A stretch of DNA of 64,000 nucleotides, from assembly GCA_015232315.1 (NCBI GenBank), contig JADFZZ010000003.1:156732-220731 (forward strand), written 5' to 3'. The translations under genes and the position numbers were made by a program. Of the stretch, positions 14,323-50,577 are shown piece after piece. Position 1 is the first letter of the stretch, and each line of letters starts with the position of its first letter. Under the pieces are notes generated by a model. It saw nothing but the letters and a program-made list of their open reading frames with translations. It did no database searches and was not told the DNA's origin. Source of the DNA: SAR324 cluster bacterium. GTDB taxonomy: Bacteria > SAR324 > NAC60-12.

Positions 14323-14946
14323 ATGGGCGATTGTTGCAGTAACGCGGGATGCGAAATTGAAAAACTCAGAGAGCGGCAATATGGAACTTTAAAATGGGTA
14401 TTGATCATCAACGCAACCATGTTTCTGGTGGAAATGACCGCGGGAATCATGGCTCATTCGACAGCCCTCCTTGCCGATTCATTGGACATGTTGGGTGATG
14501 CCATTACCTATGGTTTCAGCTTGTATGTGGTCAACCGATCAATGCTGTGGAAAGCAAAAGCCTCGCTATTGAAAGGCGGGATCATGGCCAGCTTCGGAGT
14601 GTTTGTGTTGGGAGAAGCCGTCTACAAGATTTTGTATCCAACCGTTCCAACCTATGAAACCGTTGGTGCGATTGGTCTTCTAGCTCTGGTCGCAAATGCT
14701 TATTGTCTGTTCCTTTTGTGGCAACATAGATCTGAAGACATCAACATGCGTTCTGTTTGGCTTTGCTCCCGAAATGATATCATTGCCAATGTATCAGTTT
14801 TAGCTTCCGGGGTGGGTGTTTGGCTGACTCACGAACAGTGGCCCGATATTGTTGTGGGGCTTGGAATTGCGACCCTCTTTTTACAAACTTCGTTTCATGT
14901 CATTAAAGAAGCCCTGGCTGTAGTCCCCGAAAGCCAAAATGCATGA
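14323..14946 (+). CDS. Short cation diffusion facilitator (transmembrane domain only)
   Basis: 207 aa. TM2 motif LLADSLDMLGD. Six TM segments, and the protein ends right after TM6 with no cytoplasmic CTD. Cys-rich N-terminus MGDCCSNAGCE. Confidence 0.75.
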   Translation: MGDCCSNAGCEIEKLRERQYGTLKWVLIINATMFLVEMTAGIMAHSTALLADSLDMLGDAITYGFSLYVVNRSMLWKAKASLLKGGIMASFGVFVLGEAVYKILYPTVPTYETVGAIGLLALVANAYCLFLLWQHRSEDINMRSVWLCSRNDIIANVSVLASGVGVWLTHEQWPDIVVGLGIATLFLQTSFHVIKEALAVVPESQNA

Positions 14947-15281
14947 TGTTTTATTTGGACTATAAATATAAAAATTACCTCTTGAAAAGTAATTTAATTC
15001 GTATATAAGAAGATTATTCACTTCATAAGGTAATTTTTTATTAACAGGAGACGACACATCTCCAAATGAAACAACTTGAAAGGCAGGGGTTTATGATTTC
15101 GGAAATAATAATTGTTATTGCGACAATCTATTTTGGATACATTTTTTTCACAAAAGTGTCTCAGTTCTTCAGCAAGGTATTTCGGGTTGTGACATTGATT
15201 TATTTGGAAGATAAAATCCGGGCCATTAATGAAAGGGGCGCCTCTGCTTAAAAATCCAGAGGCCTGAGGCGATGATGGGTT

Positions 15282-15716
15282 TTATACGAAATGAACATGT
15301 CCTTTGGCCTCCAAATCCCTGAGGACCGTTTGGCAAAACCCTTGTTTTCCTCTGATAAGAAAGGTTTTACGCTCTCCTTTTTCATGTGTAAACAAGCCCC
15401 ACAACAGTTCAACTTTTTTATAATCGGGGCTGGTCCACTCAATTTTGAATTCTTCATCGACCTGAGTCATCTTTTTAAGGGAGAAACCTAAGGAAGAGAC
15501 TGGAATCTGCTTACGTTTCCGCTTAAAGGTTTCTTCTGTGATGACGATTGGTTTTGCTTGTTCAAGCTCATTTGTTTTATGCGTTTTTTGTGTAATGACA
15601 ATTGGCACAGTTTCAATTTTTTCCTGCCGCTGAGCGTTTTTCCCCACTGTAGAAACAGCAATCAGTTTTCTATTCATTTTTGAATTTTCCGGCAATTTTT
15701 TGAATTTTTTATGCAT
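15282..15716 (-). CDS. Hypothetical protein, translationally coupled to mamK copy 1
   Basis: ATG 15716 follows GGAGGAG with a 5-nt spacer and overlaps the mamK-1 stop (ATGCATAA). 144 aa with a Lys-rich N-half. The C-half reads FSLKKMTQVDEEFKIEWTSPDYKKVELLWGLF.... No family recognised. Confidence 0.6.
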   Translation of the reverse strand: MHKKFKKLPENSKMNRKLIAVSTVGKNAQRQEKIETVPIVITQKTHKTNELEQAKPIVITEETFKRKRKQIPVSSLGFSLKKMTQVDEEFKIEWTSPDYKKVELLWGLFTHEKGERKTFLIRGKQGFCQTVLRDLEAKGHVHFV

Positions 15717-17241
15717 TAACTCCTCCTTCAATGACTTCGCCTAATTCATTCCAGTTTTCAACTGGAACCTCCATCGCAATTTTCAAAGCTCCATGACATC
15801 CCGCAAAATCAGGATCTTCAACACCTGTCACATAGACCGACCCATAATCCCTCAGATGTTCCTGCAAAACTTTATCCAGCCCTTTTATCCTGGAACAACG
15901 TCCTGAAAGATAGATGTTATTCAAGGTATCATCCTGATCTTCCGGATCAATCCGTTGTAGCAGTGTTTCCATACAATCCAGGATCGGTTCGATCAAGGTT
16001 TCACAGGCTGTTCTGATTTCTCTGGTAAGGTCAAACTGTTGAGGTTTCCCCGCTACCCTTAACGTCACAATCACCGATTTTTCGGGTTTACCGACAAAGG
16101 CATGCTGCTCTTTGATCGATTGTACCTGTTTTTTTGAAATTTGAACTTCGGGAAAGTGTTCTGAAATCAATTTTTTTAATATGTGATCAATATAATCCCC
16201 TCCCTGGGCAATCGTTAATTGCTCCTCGTCTTCAGGAATTTTTCCTGTCAAAACACAGATATCCGTCGTGCCGGCACCAATATCGATCACAATCGCATGA
16301 TTCAATTTCCCTAATCCATAGGCCACCATGAATGGCTCAGAAACAACAAGTGTTGTCCCTGCCAAATCCCGGGCCAGTTTGAGGAGATCTTCCTTGTGGT
16401 TGAATGATGTTCTTGCGGGGACACCAATGACAAGGGAAATGTCGTCGTGTTCCCCGGGTTGTGCCAGCTTCACCGCATGCTCAAGAATTAATCTGGCAGA
16501 ATCCATTTCTGTTGCTTTGATCACACCAGCTTCCAGTGGATAATGGATATCAAGCGATGATTGTTTCGAAAGAGCCTCTTCGCCAATCGCTTTTGTTCCA
16601 TTCAACAACTGAGCTCCAATAAGATCCTTCGGATAACCCACGACTGAAGGAAACATGGCTTTTGCGCCTCTATTGGATTGAACCGCGGTTTTTGATGTAC
16701 CCAGTTCAATGCCGATTCTCAGTTGATTGCTTGAATCTTTATTCATCGCGGAACCCCCAGGTTGTTTTGAATCAGTGGTCATTATTTTTTTAGCGGCCTG
16801 GATGTTTTGTGCCAGTTCCTCAACTTTACGGAGCAAGCTCCCGTGTGAGGGTTTTTGCGGTGCGGCTGGTGATTCAACGGATGATTTCGTTGATTCTTTT
16901 TCATGAGTTGCTTCACGTTTCAGGGGCTCCTTTTTTGTTTTATTGTTGCCTGATTGAGCGTCTGCTTCTGTTGTGAGCGATTTTGGGCCTGTCTTGTCAT
17001 TCCTGGCCGTGGTTCCCAGTATGGCATTTTTCACCAGGGATACGGCAGAGGTTTTATCTTTTTTTTCAGGCTCATCCGCAGATGCGGATTCATCAATTTT
17101 TTCAGAGGCCTTAAACGTTTCCACAACATGTTCTTTGGCGGTTAGGGTTTCCTCAGTCTGATCATCAGCATCTGGTTGACCAGCAATCTTGTCAGGATTG
17201 CCTAATAACATCCCCATGATGTCTGGTGTGTTTTTACGCAT
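15709..17241 (-). CDS. mamK: Actin-like magnetosome filament protein MamK (copy 1) with a ~170-aa acidic/Lys-rich N-terminal extension
   Basis: The C-terminal ~337 aa are colinear with the copy at 31042-32067 and carry actin-fold motifs (LRIGIELGTSKT, VIDIGAGTTDI, IYLSGRCS). ATG 17241 overlaps the parA-like stop (ATGCGTAA). An internal alternative start lies at ATG 16746 (MNKDSSNQLRIG). Confidence 0.85.
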   Translation of the reverse strand: MRKNTPDIMGMLLGNPDKIAGQPDADDQTEETLTAKEHVVETFKASEKIDESASADEPEKKDKTSAVSLVKNAILGTTARNDKTGPKSLTTEADAQSGNNKTKKEPLKREATHEKESTKSSVESPAAPQKPSHGSLLRKVEELAQNIQAAKKIMTTDSKQPGGSAMNKDSSNQLRIGIELGTSKTAVQSNRGAKAMFPSVVGYPKDLIGAQLLNGTKAIGEEALSKQSSLDIHYPLEAGVIKATEMDSARLILEHAVKLAQPGEHDDISLVIGVPARTSFNHKEDLLKLARDLAGTTLVVSEPFMVAYGLGKLNHAIVIDIGAGTTDICVLTGKIPEDEEQLTIAQGGDYIDHILKKLISEHFPEVQISKKQVQSIKEQHAFVGKPEKSVIVTLRVAGKPQQFDLTREIRTACETLIEPILDCMETLLQRIDPEDQDDTLNNIYLSGRCSRIKGLDKVLQEHLRDYGSVYVTGVEDPDFAGCHGALKIAMEVPVENWNELGEVIEGGVNA

Positions 17242-17971
17242 AGACCCTCTCGGTAAGTTGTTCATAATCTATTGCGCCTTGAGATTGAGGAGCAAATTCA
17301 TAGATGGTTTGCGCATATCCCGGTGCTTCAGAGAGTCGAACATTGTAATGAATCGGATTACAAAGTCGATCAGGATAAAATTCTTCCAACTGTTTTAATA
17401 TTTCTACAGATTTTTTAACGCGTCCATCCAGAAAAGTAGGGACAATATAGCGTAATTTTAAGTTTTTATTGTATTTCTGAACAGCTTCCACACTCTTGAT
17501 AAAGCTTGAAAGGCCATGAATGGTCATGACTTCCAGTGAAATCGGGCACAGAATTTCTTCAGCATAAAACAGGACATTCAAGGTCACTGAATCCCACCCC
17601 GGTGAGGTATCGACCAATACAAAATCAAACTTTTTTTCAATGGATGTGAACGCTTCTGAAAGGGTGTATTCCCCCCCGAGGTCTGTTCTGTCAATCAAAC
17701 GTTTGATCCCGGCTATTTCACGTCCTCCCGCGATAATCCACAGATTTTCTCTGACTTGAATGGTTGCCTCATCCACGCCACAGTCCCCAGTGATCACATC
17801 TGACAGATTCACTTTAGGTTTCAAACCAAACATGAAAGACACCTGCCCCTGTGTATCAGTGTCCAACAGCAAGACCCTGGCCCCTTTTTTCGCAAGGCCG
17901 GCAGCGAGATTCACTGCCGTCGTGGTTTTTGCGACCCCCCCCTTACTCAATGATATGGCAATTTTTCTCAT
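17234..17971 (-). CDS. ParA/MinD-family P-loop ATPase
   Basis: Deviant Walker A SKGGVAKTT, then LLLDTDTQG and Walker B FVLVDTSPG. ATG 17971 follows GGAGA. The track ORF begins at TTG 18016. Confidence 0.85.
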   Translation of the reverse strand: MRKIAISLSKGGVAKTTTAVNLAAGLAKKGARVLLLDTDTQGQVSFMFGLKPKVNLSDVITGDCGVDEATIQVRENLWIIAGGREIAGIKRLIDRTDLGGEYTLSEAFTSIEKKFDFVLVDTSPGWDSVTLNVLFYAEEILCPISLEVMTIHGLSSFIKSVEAVQKYNKNLKLRYIVPTFLDGRVKKSVEILKQLEEFYPDRLCNPIHYNVRLSEAPGYAQTIYEFAPQSQGAIDYEQLTERVYA

Positions 17972-18204
17972 TCTTGATCTCCGAATAGGGTACTTCCTCC
18001 TTGATGTATCTACCAACTAGGTTCGTTTAACATGCTGCCACAAAGGATGCAAGCCCTCTGGAAAACAGGAATCAAAGGTGGAAACGGCCATCACATACTC
18101 ATAAGTTGGCTGAAGAATTTTAAACACAACCTTTATAGAACATTTCAGGGCAGTTAAAGACAAAAATCATGTCAATATACCCAATTTTTATTTTATTTTT
18201 TCCT

Positions 18205-18233
18205 TTGATATTCTCATTTAATCCGTGTAGTTT
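18205..18233 (+). promoter_or_regulatory. Candidate sigma70-type promoter for the mamI-1 operon
   Basis: TTGATA-17 nt-TAGTTT within the 270-bp AT-rich divergent intergenic region between the parA-like gene and mamI-1. Sequence pattern only. Confidence 0.25.
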
Positions 18234-18289
18234 GCCGCTGATCATCACTTTATCTCAGTGAAAACCTGTCTCCAGTCATCTTTTTTTGA

Positions 18290-18547
18290 GTGAGAAAAAT
18301 GAAAATTTTAAATTTTGAAACCAATGATATAAAAAATAAGCTGAAACTAGACAGTATGCCCAACGGGAATCTATTTGTCGGATTGGTGGTCTGCCTCCTT
18401 GGTTTTTGGGGACTCTATGTCTGGTGGTGGTCTGTTGCGGAAGTGTTACGGGGAGTTGTGCCCATTATCCTTATTTTATTCGGTTTGGTTGCAATTGGCG
18501 CAGGTATCTCTAAAAAACAAACCAATAACCAGGTCGATGAAAAATAA
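18290..18547 (+). CDS. mamI: MamI (copy 1)
   Basis: Two-TM hairpin with the hallmark GFWGLYVWWWSVAEVLRGVVPI, matching GLWSLFIWWWSVAEFLRGFTPI in copy 2. The start is uncertain (GTG 18290, ATG 18299 or ATG 18356). Confidence 0.8.
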   Translation: MRKMKILNFETNDIKNKLKLDSMPNGNLFVGLVVCLLGFWGLYVWWWSVAEVLRGVVPIILILFGLVAIGAGISKKQTNNQVDEK

Positions 18548-18558
18548 AAAAGGCTGTT

Positions 18559-20091
18559 ATGAGTTCTGATACTGGAAATTGTCCCAGAAGATTGCGCAAA
18601 TATTTTTACATGATTCCAATCGCTTCAGTCGCGCTTGTTTTTTTCCTGTACTGGAACGATATGTTCTTTGACAATCGTACTCACAAAGGGACGACCGCAG
18701 AGATGTTCAGTGTGGCCTTCAATGCGTTGACAGGAGGTGATAATCCGACGACTTCTGTACAGGCACGTCAAAATCCAATGCCTTATGCCCAAAATCCTGT
18801 TGCCGTGCCTGTGGCGCAAGCCCCTCAGAATACGATGATATATGGACAACAGCCCTTTGCGAATTCGCCTCAAAATGCCACGACTCTTGCCCAAACTCCC
18901 TTTGTCGTGCCTGTAGTCCAGGCCCCTCAGAATAAGATGAGTTTTGCGCAAACCCCCTATGCTGTTCAGGTTGTTGAATCGCCCTTCACTCGAGTTGCTG
19001 AGTTTGCTAAACAAACTGTAGTGAATATCAGTGCGTTGCGTTTTACCGGTGCGCAACAAAATATGCAACCGGATACTCAGCAACCTACGTTCACCGCACC
19101 ATTCAGTGGTCAGGCCGTTGAAAGTATCGGTTCGGGGGTGATTGTTACGCAAGATGGGTATATTGTTACAAATTTTCATGTTGTTGAAAATGCTGATGAA
19201 ATTTTTGCGACAGTTTTTTTAAATAATGGATCGACCCAGTATCATGCCGATGTCATTCAATTATCTGAACTGCTGGATCTCGCGCTCATCAAAATTGAGC
19301 CGGCGACGCCTTTACAACCGGCACCTTTGAGTGATGAGAATCGCGTCATCAGAGTGGGCGAAGAAGTGTTGGCCATCGGCAGTCCTTTTGGTCTTGATCA
19401 AACAGTGAGCAAAGGAATCATTTCAGGCTTAAAAAAATCAATCCGGATTGATAACATTACCCACAAAAACCTGATCCAGACTGATGCCGCGATTAATCGT
19501 GGAAACTCCGGAGGCCCGCTGGTTGATATGGCCGGTTATGTGATCGGAGTTAACACCGCGATTTTTACTCCAACCGCTTCTTTCGTGGGAATCAGTTTTG
19601 CCATCCCATCGACCGAGGTTATCGAATTTCTGGAAGGTCTCATCACACTCCCCACGGTGCAGCCAAACTTGAACACTCCTGCAACAGCAACTCGAGTCGC
19701 AGGGCAAAAACTACCCTCAGTTATTGGCGAAAATCGCTTTTCAATACCTCCGTATGTTCCTTCGCAGGGGATGAACGTTGCCTTTAATCCCAATGGAAAC
19801 ATTGTGGAGTGGATGGGCGCCGAACTGACCGACATCACAACGGCCATACAAAAGAATTTTAATCTGGATAGCGGTGCGTTTCTGACCAATGTGTATTCCG
19901 GATCGAATGCCGACAAGGCCGGATTGCAACCTGGCGATGTGATATTCAGGGTTGATGGCAGGCCCGTTGGAAATGTCAATGAGCTGATCAATTTTGCTGA
20001 TCAAAATGGCGGTACCGCTCGTGTGTCAGTCATCAGGAATGGTCAAAAACGCAACATTGATATTGATATTGACAACAATAAAGCCCCTTGA
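18559..20091 (+). CDS. mamE: MamE-like HtrA/trypsin-type serine protease with one PDZ domain and no magnetochrome (copy 1)
   Basis: 510 aa: TM, Gln/Pro-rich linker, intact triad contexts TNFHVV / LDLALIKI / GNSGGP, and a C-terminal PDZ (GLQPGDVIFRVDG). No CxxCH motif anywhere in the protein. Confidence 0.85.
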   Translation: MSSDTGNCPRRLRKYFYMIPIASVALVFFLYWNDMFFDNRTHKGTTAEMFSVAFNALTGGDNPTTSVQARQNPMPYAQNPVAVPVAQAPQNTMIYGQQPFANSPQNATTLAQTPFVVPVVQAPQNKMSFAQTPYAVQVVESPFTRVAEFAKQTVVNISALRFTGAQQNMQPDTQQPTFTAPFSGQAVESIGSGVIVTQDGYIVTNFHVVENADEIFATVFLNNGSTQYHADVIQLSELLDLALIKIEPATPLQPAPLSDENRVIRVGEEVLAIGSPFGLDQTVSKGIISGLKKSIRIDNITHKNLIQTDAAINRGNSGGPLVDMAGYVIGVNTAIFTPTASFVGISFAIPSTEVIEFLEGLITLPTVQPNLNTPATATRVAGQKLPSVIGENRFSIPPYVPSQGMNVAFNPNGNIVEWMGAELTDITTAIQKNFNLDSGAFLTNVYSGSNADKAGLQPGDVIFRVDGRPVGNVNELINFADQNGGTARVSVIRNGQKRNIDIDIDNNKAP

Positions 20092-25749: not shown

Positions 25750-25944
25750 ATGCCAAGTATAGTTGTAGGAACATTGTCTTTTGCTTTAGGATTGTGGAGT
25801 TTGTTCATTTGGTGGTGGTCTGTGGCTGAATTTTTACGGGGATTCACACCTATCGCTCTCATATTGTTCGGACTGATTGCCATAGGCGCATCAATGTCCA
25901 CAAAGGAAAACAGGACAAAGGACAAAAAGGATAATGACTTATGA
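25750..25944 (+). CDS. mamI: MamI (copy 2)
   Basis: ATG 25750 lies 7 nt after GGAG. 64 aa: MPSIVVGTLSFALGLWSLFIWWWSVAEFLRGFTPIALILFGLIAIG. The stop overlaps the mamE-2 start (ATGA). Confidence 0.85.
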   Translation: MPSIVVGTLSFALGLWSLFIWWWSVAEFLRGFTPIALILFGLIAIGASMSTKENRTKDKKDNDL

Positions 25945-28679
25945 GTATTAAAGATACCTGTCCTCAACGAGAAACTTGCTTGAACAGTGATGATTGTGGC
26001 GATAAAAAGATTTGTCCGCAAAGATATAAAAAATATATCGTCATCACTGCAATCATTTCTTTAATTTTTGTATTTGCGGTCGTCCGATACGAATTGTATG
26101 ACGAATACTATGGCTCACAGAAAAATACCAGCCATCATGCGATCTTCCCGACACCGGATGCAAATCAATATCAGCCTCGGAACCCTGTGCCTGGTCCATC
26201 GCTGTCTCAACAAAATACTCAGCCTGGCAATGGTAATGGCGGTCCATATCGTTCACCAAACCCCAATGGAGGTCACCGTTCCCCCCCCAATAACGGCCCA
26301 CTCCGATCACAGAATCCTAATGGAGGAGGTCCATACCGTTCACAAAATCCTGTGAATGCTGTTGCTGTGGCGCAAACTCAAACTCCGATGGCAACCATGC
26401 CTGTCCAGCAAAGCCCCCTGGTACAGATAATCGAGTTTGCCAAACAAACGGTGGTGAACATCAGTACAATTCGCCCTATATCTACCCAAAAACAGAATCA
26501 AAATCCGAATCAGCAAGCTGGATTCACTTCACCTAATAGTGGTGAAGGAATGGAAAGTATCGGATCAGGCGTAATTGTCACCCAGGATGGGTATATTGTC
26601 ACCAATTATCATGTTGTGCAAAAATCACCGGATCTTTACGTCATCGTTTTCACAGACAATGGAACATCCCAGTACCCTGCTGAGATCATTGCCATGTCAG
26701 AACGACTTGATCTGGCGTTGATAAAGATTGAACCGAATATGATGCTTCAACCAGCTCCCTTGAGTAATGATCGCAGACTCAGCCTGGGCGAAGAAGTCGT
26801 CGCGATTGGCAGTCCTTTTGGTCTGGACCAGACTGTGAGTAAAGGGATCATTTCCGGCTTAAAAAAATCAATCAGAATTGACAACATCACCCATAAGAAT
26901 CTGATCCAGACAGATGCCGCCATCAATCGGGGGAATTCTGGAGGACCATTGATTGATATGACCGGTTATGTCATTGGGATAAACACAGCCATTTATGTCC
27001 CATCCGCGTCTTTTGCAGGGATCAGCTTTGCGGTTTCTTCCAAGGATGCGATCGAATTTTTAGAGGACTTGATTCGGTTACCACGCATTCAGCCAAATCT
27101 GAATGCCCATGCAAAAGCAATTAGGGTCGCGGCGGTAAACGCACCGGCAATTGTGGCCGGAACGCCCAATCCGCATGGTGATAGAGGTCCCTGTGAACTA
27201 TGTCATCAGATTATCGGAAATCAATCCACCGGACAGTTCAACAATGCCATGCCTGTCGCGGCGGTCATTGCGCCACCCATCATGGCAGGTGCCGCCATGC
27301 CGCATGGCGACAGGGGACCTTGCGAACAATGTCATCAAATCATCAATCCAACTCAGTCTAATGCGGCCATGCCTGTCGCCGCGATCATTGCGCCACCCAT
27401 CATGGCAGGTGCCGCCATGCCACATGGTGACAGGGGACCTTGCGAACAATGTCATCAAATCATTGGCAATCAATCACCTGGACAGCAATTCGCTGCTTCC
27501 CCCAATGTTGTCGCGCAACAGAATCAATTCGCCATGCCACCCGGACGTTATCAGGGGAATCAGGTTCCAGGCCAACCACAGGGAGCAAATGTGGCGTTCA
27601 CTGTGCCAAACATGGATTTGGAGTGGATGGGGGCCTTCCTGAAACAAATGACTCAAGATGTCGGTGGCGGTGTGTTTTTAAGTGCGATTACACCGAATTC
27701 CAAGGCACAGAAAGCTGGTTTGCAAGCAGGTGATATCATCTTTCGGGTGGAGGGGAAAAAAATACTGGATCCAAAAGATCTGATTGAGTTTACAAAGAAT
27801 ATCAATGATACCGCACGCGTGTCAGTGATCAGGAATGGGAATAAGCAGGATATCTTTGTGGACCTGCAGAACAAACCCGCGCCTGTTGACAATGTCGGTC
27901 CACCGGAAGTAACTCCACCAGATCAACCTGCGGCAGTAGGAAATGGTATTCAACAACCGATTGCTGGAAATGGTGCTGAACCACCGTTTGCTGGAAATGG
28001 TGCTGAACCACCGTTTGCGGGAAATGGTATTCAGCGTCCTCCCAGACGCAGACCAGCTCTGACTGAACTTGAATTATTAGGAATGGAGCTTACCCCGAAT
28101 ATGAACGGACAAGCTCAAGTCACTGATATTGGACGTAATTCAGTGGCATTCCGGTCTGGCATTCGAATGAATGATCTGATTCTTTCAATTGATCAGGTTC
28201 CCATTGAGTCACTTGCCACCGTCAATGAGTTGATCAATATCAACCAACCGGACAATGCTATTGAAATTGTACGGGGTAACCGTCAATTTTTTATCAGACT
28301 CACCGACAACCCCATGCCACAGAATCAACAGGCAATGGCTGGAAATGTCGCTTTGCAGAACCGTATGTCGGCAAATCAAGGGGGTGGGGCAGTGAATGGA
28401 GCTATGCAGAATCCTGCACCAGGACCAGCAGTCACAGAACTGGAAATATTAGGAATGGAAATTAAACCCACTCCAGAGGGCGGGGCGCTTGTAAGAAATG
28501 TTGATATCAATACCCTGGCATACAATGCGGGAATTCGAAAAAATGATATCATCGTCTCAATTGATCAGGTTCCAATAAAAGATCTTGCTACGATGCAGGA
28601 AATGATCAACGTCAAACAACCCGATAATCTGGTTGAAATTGCGAGAAATAATCGTAAGCAATTTTTAACTCTTAAATAA
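25941..28679 (+). CDS. mamE: MamE (copy 2): protease core + three magnetochromes + three PDZ domains
   Basis: 912 aa: Cys-rich N-terminus, TM, Pro/Asn/Gly-rich linker, intact triad contexts TNYHVV / LDLALIKI / GNSGGP. Three magnetochrome units each read PHGDRGPC-E-x-CHQII. Three PDZ-like segments follow. Confidence 0.9.
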   Translation: MSIKDTCPQRETCLNSDDCGDKKICPQRYKKYIVITAIISLIFVFAVVRYELYDEYYGSQKNTSHHAIFPTPDANQYQPRNPVPGPSLSQQNTQPGNGNGGPYRSPNPNGGHRSPPNNGPLRSQNPNGGGPYRSQNPVNAVAVAQTQTPMATMPVQQSPLVQIIEFAKQTVVNISTIRPISTQKQNQNPNQQAGFTSPNSGEGMESIGSGVIVTQDGYIVTNYHVVQKSPDLYVIVFTDNGTSQYPAEIIAMSERLDLALIKIEPNMMLQPAPLSNDRRLSLGEEVVAIGSPFGLDQTVSKGIISGLKKSIRIDNITHKNLIQTDAAINRGNSGGPLIDMTGYVIGINTAIYVPSASFAGISFAVSSKDAIEFLEDLIRLPRIQPNLNAHAKAIRVAAVNAPAIVAGTPNPHGDRGPCELCHQIIGNQSTGQFNNAMPVAAVIAPPIMAGAAMPHGDRGPCEQCHQIINPTQSNAAMPVAAIIAPPIMAGAAMPHGDRGPCEQCHQIIGNQSPGQQFAASPNVVAQQNQFAMPPGRYQGNQVPGQPQGANVAFTVPNMDLEWMGAFLKQMTQDVGGGVFLSAITPNSKAQKAGLQAGDIIFRVEGKKILDPKDLIEFTKNINDTARVSVIRNGNKQDIFVDLQNKPAPVDNVGPPEVTPPDQPAAVGNGIQQPIAGNGAEPPFAGNGAEPPFAGNGIQRPPRRRPALTELELLGMELTPNMNGQAQVTDIGRNSVAFRSGIRMNDLILSIDQVPIESLATVNELININQPDNAIEIVRGNRQFFIRLTDNPMPQNQQAMAGNVALQNRMSANQGGGAVNGAMQNPAPGPAVTELEILGMEIKPTPEGGALVRNVDINTLAYNAGIRKNDIIVSIDQVPIKDLATMQEMINVKQPDNLVEIARNNRKQFLTLK
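27244..27470 (+). repeat. Tandem 120-bp duplication inside mamE-2 (duplicated magnetochrome unit)
   Basis: 27244-27343 and 27364-27463 are nearly identical and encode AMPVAA(V/I)IAPPIMAGAAMPHGDRGPCEQCHQII twice. Confidence 0.9.
27939..28046 (+). repeat. Four tandem 27-bp units inside mamE-2
   Basis: They encode GNGIQQPIA-GNGAEPPFA-GNGAEPPFA-GNGIQRPP. The two central units are identical at the DNA level except the last codon. Confidence 0.85.
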
Positions 28680-28695: not shown

Positions 28696-30816
28696 ATGGC
28701 TAGTGGAGAAAGTAATCAAATAAGAAGACAGTCTACAAGACAAGCAGATGCATCAGAGACTGTTCTGCAATTGAACAGGCTTGAGACAAACCCCTGGAGA
28801 AATACCGGGGAGAGTTCACGAATTTCTTCGTCAATTATCACAAGAACCTTGCCTCGATCAAATAATGAAGATTCTGACCAGCCAAGGAACTTTGTCAAAT
28901 TTTCAGAAAACGAAAATCCATGGAAAAAAGCTGAAACCCAACAACCCGAAAAGGTCGGACCCCTGAACATTACTAAAAGGACCCATGTATACCATGCAAC
29001 GAATAATCCATGGGATCGAGCCGCTGAGCGAGAGCGTATAGCCGCGGAACAACGCCTTGCGGCGCAAAAGGCTGAAGAGGAAGCAAAAGCGGCAATTGCC
29101 GAGCAGGAACGACAATTGAGAGAAGCCGAACTGGAACGCATCACAGTTCAACGGGCTTTGGATGAAAGAAAAGCGGCAATTGCCGGGCAGGAACGACAAT
29201 TGAGAGAAGCCGAGTTGAAACGTTTGACTGAGCAGAAAAAAGAAGAGACTCGAAGAGCGGCTTTGGCTGAACAGGAGCTTCAGGCAAAAGAAGCTGAACT
29301 GAAGCGTTTGGCCGCACAAAAAGAAACTGAGGCCCGAAGAGCGGCGTTGGCTGAGCAGGAGCTTCAGGCAAAAGAAGCTGAACTGAAGCGCTTAACTGAA
29401 CAAAAAGCGGCAGAGGCGGGAAGATTGGCCTTGGTAGAACAGGAACTTCTGGCAAAACAACGGGAACTTGAACAGCAATCCTCGAAGGAAAAAGAAAAAG
29501 AGTACCTTGCCGAACAGGAAATTCAGACAACTGAAGAAGATTCGGAAACGCAGGATTCCGAACATGAGCAGGAACTTCAGGCAAAAGAAGCTGAACTGAA
29601 AATTTTAGCTTCGGAGAAGGCCGAAGAAGAAAGAAAAATTGCTTTGCTTGAGCAGGAGCGTCAGGCAAAAGAAACCGAATTGAAGCGTTTGGCCGCGGAG
29701 AAAACCGAAGACGAGAAAAGAGCCGCGATGGCAGAGCAGGAGCGTCAGGCAAAAGAAACCGAATTGAAGCGTTTGGCTGCGGAGAAAGCCGAAGACGAGA
29801 AAAGAGCCGCGATGGCAGAGCAGGAGCGTCAGGCAAAAGAAGCCGCATTAGAACTTCAAGTTGCTCAGAAAGCAGCAGAAACAAGAAAAGCGGCTCTTGC
29901 AGAGCAAGAACGTCAGTTAAAGGAAGTAGAGCAGGAACTTCACGCAGCACAGAAGGCCGAAGAAGAAAGAAGATTTGCCCTGTATGAACAAGAACGTCTG
30001 GCAAAGGAAGCTGAGGAGGACCGTTTGGAAAAGGAAGCAGAATTAGAAAAACAAGCCTTTGAAATTCCCGGTGAAAATACAAGCCGACGGGGTTTTAATA
30101 TTCCTAAAATCATGCTGGAACGCCAATCTGTTCAGGAACGTCAGGCAAAAGAAAAGGCAGAGGCTGAACTGAAAGCTTCTCAAGTAGCCCGGGAAGACCG
30201 GGCAAAAGAAAAAGCAGAGGCTGAAAGAACCGCATCCCTTGCGACCAGCGAAAGTCAGGCCCGTGAAGTGGAATCTGAACCACGGGTATCCCCGGAGAAA
30301 ACCACAAAGGTAGAAAATGAAACAGCACTGGTTGTTGTTAATACAAAGCAAAAGAAAAAAAGGTCTATAGCGGTTTCAGGTGTTGGAAGCAAACGTGTGT
30401 CTCTCCCAAAAGTGCGTGAGACTTCTGATAAAACAGACACTGTCAGGAAAAAAGTTGGTTTCGGATTTTTTAGAGCTAAAGCAAAAGGAGAAACCGAAAC
30501 CAAAAATGAAAATTCAGTCATCAAACCGGCTTTGCAAAGCCGACTTGGTTTTCGTAAAAAGGTAGAAACTGAAAATTCTGAAGCCAGGTCACAAACACCT
30601 AAAAAAATAAATTTCGGGAAATCCTTCAAATTACCGGATTTTTCAATAGCGTCATCCAAACCAAAACAGAAAATCAGTATTGAGGTTTCAGGAACTAAAG
30701 AAGCATCAACTTCCGAAACTGAAACGTCTTTAATCAAAGCCAGGTCAGGGAATACACTGGACTCTGGAAAAAAACTTTTTACTTCCTATGAAGTAAAAAG
30801 AAAGAAAAAAGCATAA
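28696..30816 (+). CDS. Highly charged repeat / coiled-coil protein at the mamJ position
   Basis: 706 aa. A G-rich RBS lies upstream. About eleven tandem 28-aa E/K/A/Q-rich repeats (e.g. AEQERQAKETELKRLAAEKAEDEKRAAM) are followed by a Ser/Lys-rich tail. No family recognised. Confidence 0.8.
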   Translation: MASGESNQIRRQSTRQADASETVLQLNRLETNPWRNTGESSRISSSIITRTLPRSNNEDSDQPRNFVKFSENENPWKKAETQQPEKVGPLNITKRTHVYHATNNPWDRAAERERIAAEQRLAAQKAEEEAKAAIAEQERQLREAELERITVQRALDERKAAIAGQERQLREAELKRLTEQKKEETRRAALAEQELQAKEAELKRLAAQKETEARRAALAEQELQAKEAELKRLTEQKAAEAGRLALVEQELLAKQRELEQQSSKEKEKEYLAEQEIQTTEEDSETQDSEHEQELQAKEAELKILASEKAEEERKIALLEQERQAKETELKRLAAEKTEDEKRAAMAEQERQAKETELKRLAAEKAEDEKRAAMAEQERQAKEAALELQVAQKAAETRKAALAEQERQLKEVEQELHAAQKAEEERRFALYEQERLAKEAEEDRLEKEAELEKQAFEIPGENTSRRGFNIPKIMLERQSVQERQAKEKAEAELKASQVAREDRAKEKAEAERTASLATSESQAREVESEPRVSPEKTTKVENETALVVVNTKQKKKRSIAVSGVGSKRVSLPKVRETSDKTDTVRKKVGFGFFRAKAKGETETKNENSVIKPALQSRLGFRKKVETENSEARSQTPKKINFGKSFKLPDFSIASSKPKQKISIEVSGTKEASTSETETSLIKARSGNTLDSGKKLFTSYEVKRKKKA
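29030..30050 (+). repeat. Array of 84-bp (28-codon) tandem repeats within the 706-aa gene
   Basis: Units 29651-29734 and 29735-29818 are almost identical. Earlier units (about 29270-29440) form a second near-identical pair, and the outer units are more diverged. Confidence 0.85.
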
Positions 30817-31041: not shown

Positions 31042-32067
31042 ATGAAAAAAACACAATTGAGAATAGGTATTGATCTTGGCACATCAAGAACAGCAGTTCG
31101 TTCAGACCGTGGCGCAAAAGCCGTTTTTCCATCGGTGGTCGGGTATCCACGAGACATTATTGGAACCAAGCTGTTGAATGGAACAAAAGCCGTGGGTGAT
31201 GATGCCATTGAAAAAAGGTCATACTTGACGCTGATCAATCCTCTGGATTTGGGCGTGATCAAGGAAACAAGTGAAATCGATATGGAAGCGGCAAAAGATA
31301 TTTTGGAACATGCCATAGCGATTACGCAACCGGAAGAACATGATGAGATTTGTGCTGTGATTGGTGTTCCTGCCAGAGCCTCCTTTTCCAACAAGGAAAC
31401 TCTGCTTCGCTTGGCAAAAGAACTGACTGAAGTGACACTGGTCGTTTCTGAACCATTCATGGTGGCCTATGGGATGGGCAAACTGAACAAGGCTATCATG
31501 ATTGATATTGGTGCCGGAACAACGGATATTTGCGCGTTGAAAGGGGTTGTGCCCAATTCAGAGGATCAGGTTACAATCTCAAAAGGCGGAGATCATATTG
31601 ACCATCTGTTGAAGGCGATGATACAGGAACATTACCCTGATATTCAGATCACCAAACGCGTTGTTCAGAATATTAAAGAAAAATACTCCTTCGTTGGAGA
31701 CATCAAAGAACCGGTGATCGTTCAGTTCAGAGCCAATGGAAAACCCAAGGAATATGATGTGTCTAAAGAAATAAAAGCCGCCTGTGAATCTTTGATAGCG
31801 CCGATTGTCGAGCAGGTTGAATATTTACTGGTCCGGTTTGATCCTGAAGATCAGGAAGAAGCATTACTGAATATTTATCTTGCTGGAAACGGATCTCTGA
31901 TCAGGGGCCTGGACAAAGCAATCGCGGAAAAACTGAAGGAATGTGGTGAGGTCAAGGTGTCCTGTGTGGCTGATCCTGATTTTGCAGGATGCAATGGGGC
32001 CTTGAAGCTCGCGGTGGATCTGCCGATTGAGCACTGGCATCAAATCGGAGACGTCATAGGATCTTAA
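31042..32067 (+). CDS. mamK: Actin-like magnetosome filament protein MamK (copy 2)
   Basis: ATG 31042 follows GAGGGGG. 341 aa with LRIGIDLGTSRT, MIDIGAGTTDI and IYLAGNGS. The track ORF start at 30865 runs through REP-like hairpins and is unlikely to be real. Confidence 0.9.
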   Translation: MKKTQLRIGIDLGTSRTAVRSDRGAKAVFPSVVGYPRDIIGTKLLNGTKAVGDDAIEKRSYLTLINPLDLGVIKETSEIDMEAAKDILEHAIAITQPEEHDEICAVIGVPARASFSNKETLLRLAKELTEVTLVVSEPFMVAYGMGKLNKAIMIDIGAGTTDICALKGVVPNSEDQVTISKGGDHIDHLLKAMIQEHYPDIQITKRVVQNIKEKYSFVGDIKEPVIVQFRANGKPKEYDVSKEIKAACESLIAPIVEQVEYLLVRFDPEDQEEALLNIYLAGNGSLIRGLDKAIAEKLKECGEVKVSCVADPDFAGCNGALKLAVDLPIEHWHQIGDVIGS

Positions 32068-38679: not shown

Positions 38680-39531
38680 CTAAATGAAATGCGTTGACAG
38701 ACTCTCGATCGCATCAGAATCTTTCATGATATATTCAATCAACGATAACAGATAAACAATCTCCCTGCTCATCTCTTTCATCTCAGAATAATACCATTCC
38801 GCCTGCTGATCCTCGTTTTTCCTGAGAGCCTCCACCGTATTTTGGGCCACTTCATGAAAAAACACATGCAACTCATCCAGTTTTTTAATCTCTTGGATTG
38901 AATTGTAATGTTGTGCTTGGAGATTTTTAGTCCAAAACCCGAGATCGCACTCAGTTGCTGTTGCCAGCGATGTGTGTCGTCCTCGATTTTTGAAGGCGGA
39001 AGGCATATTTTCTGTCCATTGCACATGCTTCAATCGCACATGACTGACCTGAAGTGGACTACCAAGGTTCTGTTCCGGATCACGCTGAGTCTTGGTGTTC
39101 ATGAGATAATCCAGCAAAGAACTCAAGGGATGCGACATCTTTTCCTGGCGCTCCTGCATTTGCGTTGAGGCAAGTTCCAATTCTGTCAAAAGATAGATAA
39201 TCTCCCGACTTACTTCAGTCAGACTTTCCAGCTTCAGATTGATTTCCTCCGTGGTTTTATCCGTCCGGTTTGACATAAGTTCGGAAACTTTGTCATGAAA
39301 CTGAGTATGAACAGAATCCAGCCGTTGAACCGCGTCAAACTGATGAAACTTTTTCAATCCTGAAGCCTTCAACCATAAACCCAAATCGCATTCCATATGG
39401 TTATCGACAGGAGAAAGTGTCTCCTCATTTGTCAGTGCCTGTTTCAAATCAAACATCCATTTCAAATGCAGGATTCTGGCAATATTCACATCGAGAGTTT
39501 CACTATTTTTTCGCATAGACCGATTCTCCAT
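38680..39531 (-). CDS. Stand-alone protein with two tandem CZB (chemoreceptor zinc-binding) domains
   Basis: Two complete CZB signatures: HLKW...CDLGLW...HTQFH and HVQW...CDLGFW...HVFFH. Each is followed by a helical segment containing REI(I/V)YLL. Confidence 0.8.
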   Translation of the reverse strand: MENRSMRKNSETLDVNIARILHLKWMFDLKQALTNEETLSPVDNHMECDLGLWLKASGLKKFHQFDAVQRLDSVHTQFHDKVSELMSNRTDKTTEEINLKLESLTEVSREIIYLLTELELASTQMQERQEKMSHPLSSLLDYLMNTKTQRDPEQNLGSPLQVSHVRLKHVQWTENMPSAFKNRGRHTSLATATECDLGFWTKNLQAQHYNSIQEIKKLDELHVFFHEVAQNTVEALRKNEDQQAEWYYSEMKEMSREIVYLLSLIEYIMKDSDAIESLSTHFI

Positions 39532-39739
39532 TCAACTTCACAAAAGTAATTTCAAAATTTCCCTGAGATTCTCACAACCGGGCTATGGCCCACAACTGCT
39601 TTCCCATACACTCATAAATTTTCATAATCAAGAGTAGTTTTTATCTCAGTTCAATTGACTTATTCCTGATGATCTTATATGTGAAGCTGGTGATCTGATT
39701 GTTAACAATTTTGCATTAATTTATGAACGTGAACCAAAC

Positions 39740-41161
39740 ATGGGACTCTTGATGGAAAAACAACCGGTTCTATTAATCATAGATGATGAGCCAGACCTTT
39801 GGGAGACGATCAAAAACGCTCTCAAGCGGGAAGCCTATGAACTGGTATTTGCTCAAAATGGAAAGCAGGGTCTTGAGCTTTTTCATGAAAGAACTCCCAG
39901 CCTCATTCTATTGGATTTACGCATGCCGGGCATGAACGGCCTGGAGTTTCTGCAAACCATCAAACCAGAACCCTCTGATCCATATTTTGTTTATGTTTTG
40001 ACAGGACATGGAAACAATGAAGATGTTAAAGCTTGTTATGCGGCAGGAGCTCACGGGTTTTTACGTAAACCTTTCAACATCCATGAGCTTCGTGGAGTCT
40101 TGAAACGAAGCATTCAGCTCATTAAAAACAGGGAATTAAGTTCTAACAACAAAGATGCTTACGTCGATTTTATTGTAAACAGCTCCAACTGTCGTACACC
40201 GGAACAATTAACTGAAACCTTCTTCGAAGCTGTCAAACGCCTTTATTTTGAAAACTGGGGTTCACTCAACGTTTCAATCCTTACCAGGAATGAGGGGAGC
40301 GTTTTTGGACTTTCAGACCAAACCTCAGTTGTGAAAGATGGTGCCGCACTTGAGCGGACAGACTTAAATTCTGTCACGAACCTGAGTGCCTTGGAACAGA
40401 AAATATTAAAAAAAACATTGAATGAATATACGGTTGAAACCAAAGAAGGTCAGGCAAAGGATGCACCCACAGTCCATGCCGCCTGGGCAATTTTCTGGGA
40501 ACTGGAGGGGGATCCTGCTGATTCAAGTGGGCTGGCGGTCCTCATACGCAATTATCCATCGCTTGAATGTTCTGATGAAACTCAGTTGGCAACGAGGAAA
40601 AATATCAGGGAAGACATTGAGAATGCTGTGGCCAAGATGCTTGAACGGGTTTCTGAAGTTATGGAAAAACTCAACACCCAAAGAAAGCTGAAAGAAACCA
40701 ATGCTTTGCTGGAAAAACAAAAAACCGAACTTGAACATGAACGGGAAACAACTAAAAAGATTGTGCTTTTCTCTGTGCAGGAATTTCAGGTCATCTTTGA
40801 GGACAGCAATGACAATCAGGAAAAACAGATGGAACTTTGGGAAAACGCGCTCGCCTCTGTTAAAGAATCCTTCAATAAAGCCCTTGAGGCCACTGAAAAT
40901 ACGGTTAGAAGTCGAAATCAACAAATTTCAATGTGGAGGGATTCTGTGGATCAAGTGACCCGGTCCTTCACACAGGCAATGTCCTGTTTCACCGAATTGC
41001 AACCCGGCCAGCAGACCTTTCTGACGAATCTGAATAAACTGAAATCCCTTTACAGTGACACGGATTTGAATGAAAAACTAACACCCGGACAAATGAGTCA
41101 TACCGACGTGTCGGGCCAACAGGAAAACGTTGATGACCTGCTGGCCTCCTTAGGCTTGTGA
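39740..41161 (+). CDS. Response-regulator receiver protein with unknown central domain, coiled coil and CheZ-type C-terminal peptide
   Basis: 473 aa. REC with IIDDE, LLDLRMP, LTGHG, FLRKP. The C-terminus ...SGQQENVDDLLASLGL resembles the CheZ C-terminal CheY-binding peptide (...QDQVDDLLDSLGF). Confidence 0.8.
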   Translation: MGLLMEKQPVLLIIDDEPDLWETIKNALKREAYELVFAQNGKQGLELFHERTPSLILLDLRMPGMNGLEFLQTIKPEPSDPYFVYVLTGHGNNEDVKACYAAGAHGFLRKPFNIHELRGVLKRSIQLIKNRELSSNNKDAYVDFIVNSSNCRTPEQLTETFFEAVKRLYFENWGSLNVSILTRNEGSVFGLSDQTSVVKDGAALERTDLNSVTNLSALEQKILKKTLNEYTVETKEGQAKDAPTVHAAWAIFWELEGDPADSSGLAVLIRNYPSLECSDETQLATRKNIREDIENAVAKMLERVSEVMEKLNTQRKLKETNALLEKQKTELEHERETTKKIVLFSVQEFQVIFEDSNDNQEKQMELWENALASVKESFNKALEATENTVRSRNQQISMWRDSVDQVTRSFTQAMSCFTELQPGQQTFLTNLNKLKSLYSDTDLNEKLTPGQMSHTDVSGQQENVDDLLASLGL

Positions 41162-41187
41162 AACTCAGCGTCCGGAAACCCGATCAA

Positions 41188-41376
41188 AAGTTTCCACCTG
41201 TGCAGGTGGTTTGAAAATGAGCCACCAAGAACGCTAAGAACACGAAAAAAAGGTTTTTTATATAAATGAAGTCCTCCGTGAAACCCTGATTTTCAAGTTT
41301 TCCGGTGTATATTCCCTTTTTTACTTTGTGTTCTTCGTGTACTTCGTGGCTGAAAAAGTACCTGCACAGCTCGATG
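41188..41376 (-). repeat. MITE-like palindromic element, family 2, copy 3 (inverted)
   Basis: Its reverse complement is near-identical to 25139-25325. Track ORF 41184-41441 merely reads through it. Confidence 0.85.
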
Positions 41377-41425
41377 TTATTTATTGAACGTTTCTTAGCC
41401 GGATAATACATCTTCAGAAAATAAA

Positions 41426-43693: not shown

Positions 43694-43703
43694 TCAGGAA
43701 AAG

Positions 43704-46031: not shown

Positions 46032-46058
46032 GGGCGAACCTGTGTGTTCGAACTGATA

Positions 46059-46346
46059 CCAATGTCGTCAACTTAAGGCGTTCTTCGCCGTGGAATCCCC
46101 TTTTCAAAGGGGTCATGGGGGATTTAAAGCTCAGAATAACATCCCACTAACCCCCTTGAACCAAGGGGAATTGGTGCCAGCGCCTTCACAATGTCGTCAA
46201 CTTAAGGCGTTCTTCGCCGTGGAATCCCCCTTTTCAAAGGGGTCATGGGGGATTTAAAGCTCAGAATAACATCCCCCGCCCCAGCACCCTTAAACCAAGG
46301 GGGAATTGGTGCCAGCACCTTCACAGGGCTTAACTTAACAGACGTG
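46059..46346 (+). repeat. Two head-to-tail family-1 MITE copies (46059-46188 truncated, 46189-46346 complete)
   Basis: Both begin caatgtcgtcaacttaaggcgttcttcgccgtggaatcccc. Only the second has a right end, and it is of the other subtype (cttaacttaacagacgtg). Confidence 0.85.
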
Positions 46347-46628
46347 GACGAGACGTCAGGAACCAGAGTAGTGTTAAAAAACTTTTGATCGGGTACTTAC
46401 CATCCGGTTGACGCTAAGGAACATTCGAAAAATAAAACAGATAAATTCTCCGAACAATATTTCCTGTCGGGCACACGTAGAGACGCGCTATAGCACGTCT
46501 CTACAGACCAGAACAGGAGAGACTGGATTGGAAAATGTTTACAACTTATTCTTTTGCCGTTCCTAAAATCATAAGAACAACCCCGGGTGTACTGTCGGCG
46601 CAATCCGTTTCATTAAAAGGTTTCAAAC

Positions 46629-49508: not shown

Positions 49509-49819
49509 ACCCCTCATTTTCCTCCATTGTAATTAATTTTTTTCCTCCCGGCTAAAATAGATTTTTTGGCATGGTCTTTGTTATATTCTGTCCTGAAGGT
49601 CAGATGTTGTCCTGAATCTCATATCCTGTATTGCTTTTATGCAATAAAACAGGTTATAGCTAACATGATGTGTTCCGGGTTTCTGATTCCCGATGTTTTG
49701 TAAAAACCTCATCGAACCAGTCCTGATCACATCACAAACGCAGGAGACAGACTCCACGTATTGAGCATTCTTCAACTGGAATGCGGAAATATTGAATAAC
49801 CTTTTGCAATAAAAACGAT

Positions 49820-50185
49820 ATGTCCAAGAAAGCTTTGGTAATGGATGATTCACCGATTATCCGGAAAATGTTGACACATGGCCTGACCCGTTCGTTTGGC
49901 TTTGAGGTCATTGAAGCCGAAAATGGTCAGGATGGATTGACAAAGACCTCCCAACACGAGTTTGATTTGATTTTTTCCGATATCAATATGCCGGTCATGA
50001 CGGGGGTAGAATTTCTTGAAAAGTTCCGTAGCACCAACACCACAACCCCGGTGTTCATGCTTACCTCGGAAAAAGAAGATGTTTACAAACAAAAATGTCT
50101 GGATTTAGGAGCAACCGATTTTTTCAAAAAGCCGTTCAAACCAAATACCATCGAAGCCGCGTTGAAACAACTTCTGGAGGGGTGA
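49820..50185 (+). CDS. cheY: Single-domain response regulator, CheY-like
   Basis: 121 aa. VMDDS, FSDINMP (acceptor Asp), MLTSE (Thr), FFKKP (Lys). Confidence 0.85.
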   Translation: MSKKALVMDDSPIIRKMLTHGLTRSFGFEVIEAENGQDGLTKTSQHEFDLIFSDINMPVMTGVEFLEKFRSTNTTTPVFMLTSEKEDVYKQKCLDLGATDFFKKPFKPNTIEAALKQLLEG

Positions 50186-50233
50186 TCAGGCTGATTCATC
50201 AATTGCCAGACTTCTGGTTCCCATGCTCTGCGT

Positions 50234-50388: not shown

Positions 50389-50414
50389 ATGCTCTGCGTG
50401 GGAACCTCCGGGGG

Positions 50415-50566: not shown

Positions 50567-50577
50567 CCTGAAAACAA

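Follow-up and report, generated by a model that had tools for sequence, protein, structure and literature searches.

A putative ParA-docking motif at the N-terminus of an actin-like MamK protein encoded in a SAR324 magnetosome gene cluster

Placement of the magnetosome chain is the textbook case of actin-driven organelle segregation in bacteria. In Magnetospirillum, the chain is centred by treadmilling of MamK (an actin-like protein), which the authors of that work described as 'entirely dissimilar' from ParA-type systems (PMC5059902). Partner proteins of ParA/MinD ATPases engage the ATPase via a charged, disordered N-terminus, and the remainder of the partner binds the cargo; McdA/McdB of carboxysomes and ParC/ParP and PpfA/TlpT of chemoreceptor arrays follow this scheme with cargo other than DNA (PMC10241942, PMC11407121). 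The type Ib small-ParA cassettes, such as ParF/ParG of TP228 and delta/omega of pSM19035, combine a small ParA that has no N-terminal DNA-binding domain with a partner gene lying directly downstream and overlapping it, and the flexible N-terminal tail of the partner engages the ATPase. A search of the text of a 2024 review of ParA/MinD positioning found no mention of magnetosomes or MamK. Here we describe an operon on the minus strand of a 64-kb stretch of DNA from a SAR324 cluster bacterium (the window, whose coordinates are used throughout) in which a parA gene is followed by a mamK gene, mamK-1, and by a third gene, and in which MamK-1 itself appears to begin with the N-terminal motif of ParA partner proteins.

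The operon resembles the type Ib cassettes in having a small ParA and a partner gene directly downstream and overlapping, a layout also found on plasmids that carry the window's own ParA family. It differs in that MamK takes the place of the DNA-binding module, that no centromere-like repeats were found, and that the genes are chromosomal and lie inside a magnetosome cluster. The likeness to ParF/ParG and delta/omega is one of layout, and the RHH fold in the family is read from a sequence pattern. As in McdA/McdB, ParC/ParP and PpfA/TlpT, the cargo would be something other than DNA; unlike in those systems, the cargo would be bound by an actin-like protein that polymerises and not by a passive adaptor. 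The McdA/McdB family was not among the listed NCBIfam hits, although no dedicated comparison was made, and the resemblance is a functional one. Like Magnetospirillum MamK, MamK-1 contains a bona fide MamK domain and is encoded in a magnetosome cluster, here one that also holds a canonical second MamK (MamK-2). Unlike Magnetospirillum MamK, it carries a 173-residue N-terminal extension that includes a putative ParA-partner tag, and its gene follows parA. What appears to be new here is that an actin-like filament protein, a partner without precedent, takes part in a predicted positioning module of the ParA-partner kind.

The evidence is drawn from two metagenome-assembled genomes that are close relatives and represent an uncultured SAR324 lineage. 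The second, GCA_015231535.1, contains a locus (L001) whose ParA is 99% identical to that of the window, with the same gene order and approximately 97% identity to the window in the DNA of the region; an assembly chimera is excluded because the two independent assemblies agree. On re-reading of the sequence, the open reading frames (ORFs), coordinates, overlap strings and GGAGGAG site given in a preliminary description of the window were all exact, and both the neighbouring genes and the domain scans agreed with its placement of three contiguous, co-oriented and overlapping genes within a magnetosome gene cluster. The features of the operon are as follows.

17971-17234, minus strand: parA; ATG at 17971, stop TAA at 17236-17234; 245 amino acids (aa).
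17241-17234, minus strand: overlap of the parA stop with the start of the long mamK-1 ORF, ATGCGTAA; 8 nucleotides (nt), read from the sequence.
17241-15709, minus strand: long mamK-1 ORF; ATG at 17241-17239, TAA at 15711-15709; 510 codons comprising tag, linker and actin-like MamK domain.
17197-17238, minus strand: putative ParA-docking and ATPase-activating tag, residues 2-15 of the long ORF, RKNTPDIMGMLLGN; match to the partner N-terminal motif.
16723-17196, minus strand: linker, residues 16-173; charged, of low complexity and probably disordered.
15709-16722, minus strand: MamK actin-like domain (NF040964), residues 174-510 and the stop.
15726-15720, minus strand: GGAGGAG upstream of gene 3, conserved in L001.
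15716-15709, minus strand: overlap of the mamK-1 stop with the gene 3 start, ATGCATAA; read from the sequence.
15716-15282, minus strand: gene 3; ATG at 15716-15714, TAA at 15284-15282; 144 aa, function unassigned.

To sample the family of the window ParA, the downstream ORFs were extracted from two initial relatives and 80 further metagenome loci, giving 82 loci. In the two initial relatives, the next gene overlaps the parA stop and begins MTSRKKTPDILGAVLG or MADTKRKETPDILGSLLG. A partner with the N-terminal motif RK-x-TPD-[ILV]-L-x-x-LLG was encoded at 53 of the 82 loci. Its start overlapped the parA stop by 8 nt at 22 of these 53 loci, by 11 nt at 17 and by 14 nt at 8, and the commonest geometry is therefore that of the window. 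The first 15 residues of the long mamK-1 ORF, MRKNTPDIMGMLLGN, match the N-termini of these partners, and the match sits exactly at the start contained in ATGCGTAA; TPDIMGMLLGNPDK is an example of an N-terminal peptide of the long form. A hidden Markov model of the motif (17 positions, built from 33 distinct partner N-termini) and a full-length profile of the partners with an RHH-like module were both run on six-frame translations of the window, of L001 and of 80 MamK loci, a set of 1.48 million residues. The motif model scored best at the long mamK starts of the two strains (E 0.017-0.018 for the window and L001), followed by a hit with an E value of 1.2. The RHH-partner profile matched this ORF only (E 9e-4), with positions 3-62 of its 127, corresponding to tag and linker, aligned and positions 63-127, the RHH-like part, unmatched. 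The MamK domain stands where the family partners have their small cargo module, and the first 32 residues of MamK-1 are identical in L001.

These findings strengthened the functional ParA-MamK link that had been proposed earlier, in that MamK-1 itself starts with the partner motif of the family. We lean towards viewing the operon as a parA-partner cassette of plasmid type, with MamK in place of the partner's cargo-binding module, and a functional link between ParA and MamK-1 mediated by the tag seems, by a similar measure, somewhat probable. The tight coupling of the two genes did not originate with MamK; it is inherited from an ancestral parA-partner cassette with the same 8-nt overlap.

The partners of the family share a layout of N-terminal motif, charged linker of 30-64 aa and variable C-terminal module. 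In approximately 31 loci, the module is RHH-like (a K-A-T-[FY]-Y-L strand followed by helices), an assignment made by sequence pattern only and with no Pfam hit. In 12 loci, it was assigned to DUF4177, again by sequence pattern, and the single representative that was scanned gave a Pfam E value of 3.4e-6. A module of approximately 200 aa and unassigned type was found in four partner loci. In locus L094 (3737-4660), the partner joins the tag to a CheW domain (1.2e-35) and to a helix-hairpin-helix, which suggests that the family also positions chemoreceptor arrays. Complete plasmids of Rhabdochlamydia encode a ParA 53% identical to that of the window, together with a partner that begins MVDRLETPDIMSSLMSE and has an RHH-like end, and a plasmid of Pseudodesulfovibrio profundus encodes a ParA with 43% identity. 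Since the tagged cassettes are found on complete plasmids, the family is therefore a plasmid-type partition system in which the tag is combined with different cargo modules. The window ParA is a member of this family of plasmid-partition type, and the Rhabdochlamydia proteins with their tagged RHH-like partners are among its relatives. A cognate partition partner or parS close to the operon, which the preliminary description had named as evidence against its proposal, did not come to light. The ParA has no DNA-binding partner beside it, all frames of the 64-kb window having yielded neither an RHH-like nor a DUF4177 partner module, and a search for centromere-like iterated repeats around the operon (14900-18600) gave only two-copy short repeats and no arrays, although degenerate sites could escape such a search.

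The loci in which no tagged partner was found mostly carry a longer form of ParA with an upstream in-frame extension, probably of the zinc-ribbon type, and in those metagenome loci where the ParA frame continues upstream, no tagged partner was found downstream of ParA. This longer form (approximately 300-325 aa, with an N-terminal zinc ribbon, PF13717) is widespread, with Desulfobulbaceae, Desulfurivibrio and Thiovibrio among the named sources; it occurs in loci L089-L092, L097, L098, L106, L113, L116, L131, L132, L155 and others, and as proteins P0027 and P0101.

The product of parA is of the ParA/MinD type, with Pfam matches to AAA_31 (3e-38, 131.9 bits, cut-off 27) and CbiA (7e-22, 78.2 bits, cut-off 25.4). 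It scored 79.3 bits with the NCBIfam ParA_partition equivalog NF041546, below the cut-off of 180, and is thus a member of the ParA superfamily but not of that equivalog. Its deviant Walker A motif, KGGVAKT with the signature lysine, lies in SKGGVAKTT at residues 9-17. The best-scoring members of a large ParA family (6,337 database hits) are 58-63% identical to it, and its closest solved relatives are ParA/Soj proteins. Lys10, Lys15, Asp39 and Asp121 are kept; in the family alignment the signature lysine, the Walker A lysine, Asp39 and Asp121 are invariant, but these columns were defined on an alignment that includes the window ParA, and are retained there by definition. Arg184 (in LDGR) and Arg212 (in NVRLSEAP), which are also kept, align with arginines of Thermus thermophilus Soj and presumably correspond to the DNA-binding residues Arg189 and Arg218 of Bacillus subtilis Soj. 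The protein has neither an N-terminal extension nor a C-terminal membrane helix; in the alignment it ends at or before the common C-terminus of its family, and there is therefore no room for a membrane helix of the MinD type. The substitution of Gly14 by Ala in the Walker A motif differs from the family, but was dropped as an oddity when the same Ala was seen in the best solved relative, the ParA-like protein of Mycobacterium smegmatis (4pfs). Compared with L001, parA has 18 synonymous and three non-synonymous changes, a ratio of non-synonymous to synonymous rates (dN/dS) of 0.047. The gene is intact and under strong purifying selection.

Residues 174-504 of MamK-1 align with positions 1-334 of the 335 positions of the NCBIfam MamK model NF040964, with a score of 426.8 bits against a cut-off of 400. 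The first 173 residues gave no family match in the scans. In the AlphaFold2 model, the mean predicted local distance difference test (pLDDT) score of successive 10-residue blocks is 30-64 over residues 1-170, which contain two low-confidence helices, and 87-98 over residues 171-500; such a model fits residues 1-170 as a flexible tether. MamK-1 keeps 83 of 91 highly conserved MamK columns, which is within the range of other MamK proteins. The closest protein to the MamK-1 core among those compared is MamK-2, with 60% identity, the next best in the database having 58%. This suggests a lineage-specific duplication of mamK before the fusion.

31042-32067, plus strand: MamK-2, canonical; approximately 341 aa from the ATG giving MKKTQLRIGIDLG, in the second set of mam genes.

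The mechanical ORF of MamK-2 starts 59 codons further upstream at a TTG that is probably not the real start. Directly upstream of mamK-2, at 28696-30816 on the plus strand, a 706-aa protein is encoded that is made up of Glu/Lys/Ala-rich units (AEQERQAKEAELKRLAAEK and variants) repeated many times in tandem. No Pfam family matches it, and it could act as a chain organiser of the MamJ or Mad type.

We propose the following working model. With the long MamK-1 ORF translated, its tag would dock on ATP-bound ParA dimers and stimulate their ATPase activity. The dimers are assumed to be bound to the nucleoid, the Soj-aligned arginines being kept and a membrane-targeting helix being absent. MamK-1 would display the tag on a tether of approximately 150 residues, and a MamK-1 filament, formed alone or by co-polymerisation with MamK-2 or an untagged short isoform, would present many tags and become a multivalent cargo for ParA. 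By locally stimulating ParA release, the filament would generate a ParA gradient that moves, centres or partitions it, together with the attached magnetosome chain, along the nucleoid, much as carboxysomes or plasmids are positioned. Gene 3 would be co-translated from its strong ribosome-binding site. MamK-1 would in this model be a natural chimera of ParA tag, disordered tether and actin-like polymer, with the ParA gradient centring or partitioning the chain on the nucleoid; we regard this full scheme as tentative, a possibility to which we give a little less than even weight. By analogy with described ParA systems, we infer the ParA-MamK interaction, the nucleoid as the surface and the positioning role.

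A number of observations weigh against this reading, and the first of them concern the start codons. The public call on the window's 340-kb contig (P0121) is a 345-aa MamK beginning at an internal ATG at 16746, and the public calls for L001 likewise give a 345-aa MamK, 488 nt after the parA stop, and a gene 3 of 131 aa. The starts in these calls are at 16744-16746 (MamK) and 15677-15679 (gene 3), both on the minus strand, and at 3509 and 4578 in L001. A G-rich stretch precedes the internal ATG.

16744-16746, minus strand: internal ATG used by the public calls, with GGGGG 8-12 nt upstream.

A short untagged isoform of MamK-1 initiated at this codon is possible, and the tagged form may be rare or absent. 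Translational coupling of the three genes hinges on the true starts because the public starts give no overlaps; the coupling put forward in the preliminary description accordingly stands with the long starts and falls with the public ones. The extension itself has eight synonymous and nine non-synonymous differences between the two strains, and its dN/dS of 0.32 is imprecise, being derived from 17 substitutions only.

Further points on the same side come from the proteins and from their distribution. The linker of MamK-1 is approximately three times longer than the 30-64 aa of the family partners. In the phosphate-1 motif (GIELGT; 16705-16707), Asp179 is replaced by Glu, a change unique among 25 sequences, the other 24 of which have Asp, and in the GGG motif (SGRCS; 15895-15897), Gly449 is replaced by Cys where 23 of 24 others have Gly. 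Both substitutions are present in both strains, and the ATPase activity or dynamics of MamK-1 may differ from those of canonical MamK. The dN/dS of the MamK-1 core is 0.40, and the protein may be a relaxed paralogue. In the window ParA, the nearly invariant Arg208 of the family is a His, and nucleoid binding by this ParA is an assumption. An interpretation of Arg208His as the loss of a Soj DNA-binding arginine was rejected, since the Soj arginines align with Arg184 and Arg212 and both are kept. No close ParA, tag or gene 3 homologue was found in 80 other MamK or MamK-like loci from species-representative genomes, and the arrangement is missing from other magnetotactic SAR324 genomes too; the tagged arrangement was found only in the two closely related uncultured SAR324 genomes. 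In one of the other SAR324 genomes with magnetosome genes, the order is mamI-mamE-mamK-mamP-mamQ and parA is lacking.

The strongest alternative is that the arrangement is a relic. A parA-partner cassette from a plasmid or island would have landed upstream of a duplicated mamK, a deletion would have removed the DNA-binding domain, and the junction would be accidental; only the 345-aa MamK would be made, the 5' part would be a leader or a rarely translated remnant, and ParA would be idle or serve another cargo. The internal start of the public calls with its G-rich stretch, the unusually long linker, the confinement of the arrangement to one lineage, the plasmid-borne nature of the family elsewhere and the 17 substitutions behind the dN/dS of the extension are all in keeping with such an origin. 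Short overlaps of start and stop codons are common in operons and mean little alone. Against a relic stand the strong selection on parA (dN/dS 0.047), the lack of any difference between the strains in the tag or elsewhere in residues 1-32, and the absence from the window of any other partner module for ParA. The 519 nt of the extension are free of stops in both strains with no indel, and are open solely in the MamK frame, the other five frames having 4-22 stops. The codon-frame score per codon is +0.186 in the extension, +0.187 in parA and +0.211 in the MamK core; the codon usage of the extension thus equals that of real genes, whereas two intergenic control stretches were negative in all frames. 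The long start retains the 8-nt overlap of the family and is preceded at 5-10 nt from ATG 17241 by AGAGGG, a ribosome-binding site that lies inside the parA codons for ...TERV; an alternative ATG at 17265 has no such site. Likewise, L001 retains the gene 3 ATG of 15716 together with its GGAGGAG, and the start of the 131-aa form has, by reading, no comparable ribosome-binding site. When compared with 5.8 billion proteins, the 173-residue extension gave no homologue, and the called proteins P0121 and that of L001 exclude the extension. Taken together, the position of the motif, the overlap typical of the family, the open frame, the codon score and the conservation of the gene 3 start lend the long starts support beyond chance, and from these sequence features we infer that the long mamK-1 ORF is translated. 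We consider a relic unlikely, though not negligible.

A second alternative accepts the same link between tag and ParA as the cargo model and differs in its purpose. ParA would bind the tag to set where and when MamK-1 polymerises, as a spatial inhibitor or nucleator, and would not transport it as cargo. MipZ and MinCD act in this way on FtsZ, and some members of the ParA/MinD group, MipZ and MinD among them, regulate the assembly of polymers instead of transporting cargo. The substitutions in the nucleotide-binding motifs of MamK-1, which could alter its dynamics, also speak for this alternative. However, the closest relatives, in so far as their partner module can be recognised, pair ParA with RHH-like modules (also on plasmids), DUF4177 and CheW modules, which fits cargo systems better, and the sequence offers nothing that separates a regulator from a cargo mode. 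We hold regulation of this kind to be decidedly improbable.

Gene 3 encodes a protein whose N-terminal half is of low confidence in the structure model and has a duplicated PIVITxxT motif, followed by a conserved C-terminal domain at residues 88-143 (15288-15455). HMMER found 39 homologues among 1.84 billion representative proteins; the C-terminal domain of approximately 60 residues is common to them, and most of the homologues listed are approximately 90-110 aa long. In the AlphaFold2 model, residues 91-144 have block mean pLDDT values of 93-97 and form four strands, a helix and a strand. A comparison of the model with solved structures gave nothing significant (best E 0.14), searches of Pfam and NCBIfam gave no family for gene 3, and a profile of the gene 3 family found no member in more than 80 other ParA loci or in the 80 MamK loci. 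The string IAVS.VG, which gene 3 shares with the 706-aa protein encoded before mamK-2, was not significant (E 0.8-11). One homologue, of 97 aa (L167, 5234-5527), lies beside two genes for zinc-ribbon (DZR) proteins, one of which also has TM2, and near three genes for dynamin-like GTPases, one of them a fusion with a protein kinase. The called neighbours include no magnetosome genes, and the setting hints that the gene 3 family may act at membranes.

The adaptor role first suggested for gene 3, with ParA and MamK as separate proteins that are merely co-produced and bridged by its product, draws on the coupling through a GGAGGAG conserved between the two strains and on an N-terminal half of low model confidence as in many adaptors, but it is very improbable given that the partner motif is absent from gene 3 and built into MamK-1, that the family is missing from the ParA and MamK loci just mentioned, that one homologue sits among dynamin-like genes with no magnetosome genes, and that no structural or family match points to binding of ParA or actin. 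Gene 3 is probably an accessory factor rather than a ParA-MamK adaptor.

In other magnetosome clusters, the nearest parallel is Mad28/Mad29 of Nitrospirota and Desulfobacterota, in which, as in the window, an actin-like gene is close to a gene for an ATPase of the MinD/ParA superfamily. The genes mad28 and mad29 have been reported together in Nitrospirota (PMC9376291), and Mad29 has been reported to have an ATPase domain (PMC9840458). In a Nitrospirae locus (L080, 211-6062), genes for a Volactin-type actin, a 157-aa ORF, a 298-aa MinD/ParA-like ATPase, a coiled-coil protein, a second 157-aa ORF and mamK lie within 6 kb; the actin is probably mad28 and the ATPase probably mad29. Here, in contrast to the window, the ATPase is neither fused to nor overlapping with the actin gene, and no tag motif was found. 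The ATPase of L080 is 31% identical to the window ParA over 163 residues, is longer and belongs to a different subfamily. The window ParA was rejected as an ortholog of Mad29 on this figure of 31%, as against approximately 60% identity to ParA proteins from loci with no MamK or gene 3 homologue, and parA in the window has no actin gene of the mad28 type as a neighbour. The low identity of the L080 ATPase and the absence of a tag there point to the system of the window as an independent recruitment, in which its ParA appears to have been acquired independently of Mad29. The proposition that ParA and actin systems are normally used separately holds for the studied models (PMC5059902), but has a loose precedent in this probable Mad29 near actin-like genes. 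Magnetosome clusters of deep-branching lineages may repeatedly pair an actin gene with an adjacent gene for a P-loop ATPase.

The TPD motif is absent from other long MamK proteins (387-467 aa) that have basic or other N-terminal extensions. Very basic tails of 40-120 residues rich in Lys, Thr and Pro, for example MKKKSPKKKATRQKKKAVKKR, occur at the N-termini of P0124, P0135, P0138, P0149, P0151, P0147 and the MamK of L170 (1942-3165), with SAR324, Thermodesulfobacteriota and Magnetococcales among the sources. By tethering MamK to DNA or to a membrane, such tails might reach the same goal in another way.

The genes surrounding the operon are those of a magnetosome cluster. Adjoining parA and divergent from it are mamI, mamE (trypsin-PDZ), mamP (PDZ-magnetochrome), mamQ (LemA) and a gene for a magnetochrome protein, and on the other side of the operon are a cation-efflux gene, feoB and a gene of the feoA/DtxR type. 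The left flank consists of housekeeping genes (CoaE, aspartate kinase and endonuclease III). Farther on is a second set of mam genes, encoding a 912-aa MamE-like protein, MamK-2, CDF transporters of the mamB/M type, a MamO-like trypsin-TauE protein, a TPR protein (mamA) and a second LemA protein. The 912-aa protein (25941-28679, plus strand) contains one trypsin domain along with magnetochrome and PDZ domains, three of each, and is a far larger paralogue of the 510-aa MamE at 18559-20091, in which no magnetochrome domain showed. Downstream of the mam genes, at 38680-54426, is a dense block of signalling genes. Its products include a 959-aa coiled-coil protein, a 1282-aa multi-domain protein and a protein in which the chemoreceptor zinc-binding domain occurs twice, and a CheA-like hybrid of receiver, Hpt and HATPase domains was confirmed at 41426-43693, with similar-looking neighbours at 39740 and 43578; the block may link the magnetosome genes to taxis signalling. 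No integrase was present among the flanking ORFs scanned, and no tRNA gene marking an island border was found near the operon. Promoter-like and terminator-like matches in 14900-18600 were at chance level only, and a hairpin 3' of gene 3 was as stable as shuffled sequence (z = 0.0). The boundaries of the operon rest on gene layout alone because these signals are at chance level.

The automatic gene calls cut this MamK short and hide both the fusion and the two overlaps, which amounts to a systematic annotation problem. Should the cell produce the tagged MamK-1, and should this form engage ParA, then ParA systems can carry a cytoskeletal filament. The N-terminal tag would in that case be a portable module, moved by evolution between DNA-binding, CheW and actin-like domains; synthetic biologists have proposed moving such tags between proteins (PMC10241942). 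In the chimeric MamK-1 of our model, cytomotive systems of type I (ParA) and type II (actin) would be combined into a hybrid, and the magnetosome would be the first membrane-bounded bacterial organelle to serve as ParA cargo. For this uncultured magnetotactic lineage, it would provide a concrete route by which the chain is placed.

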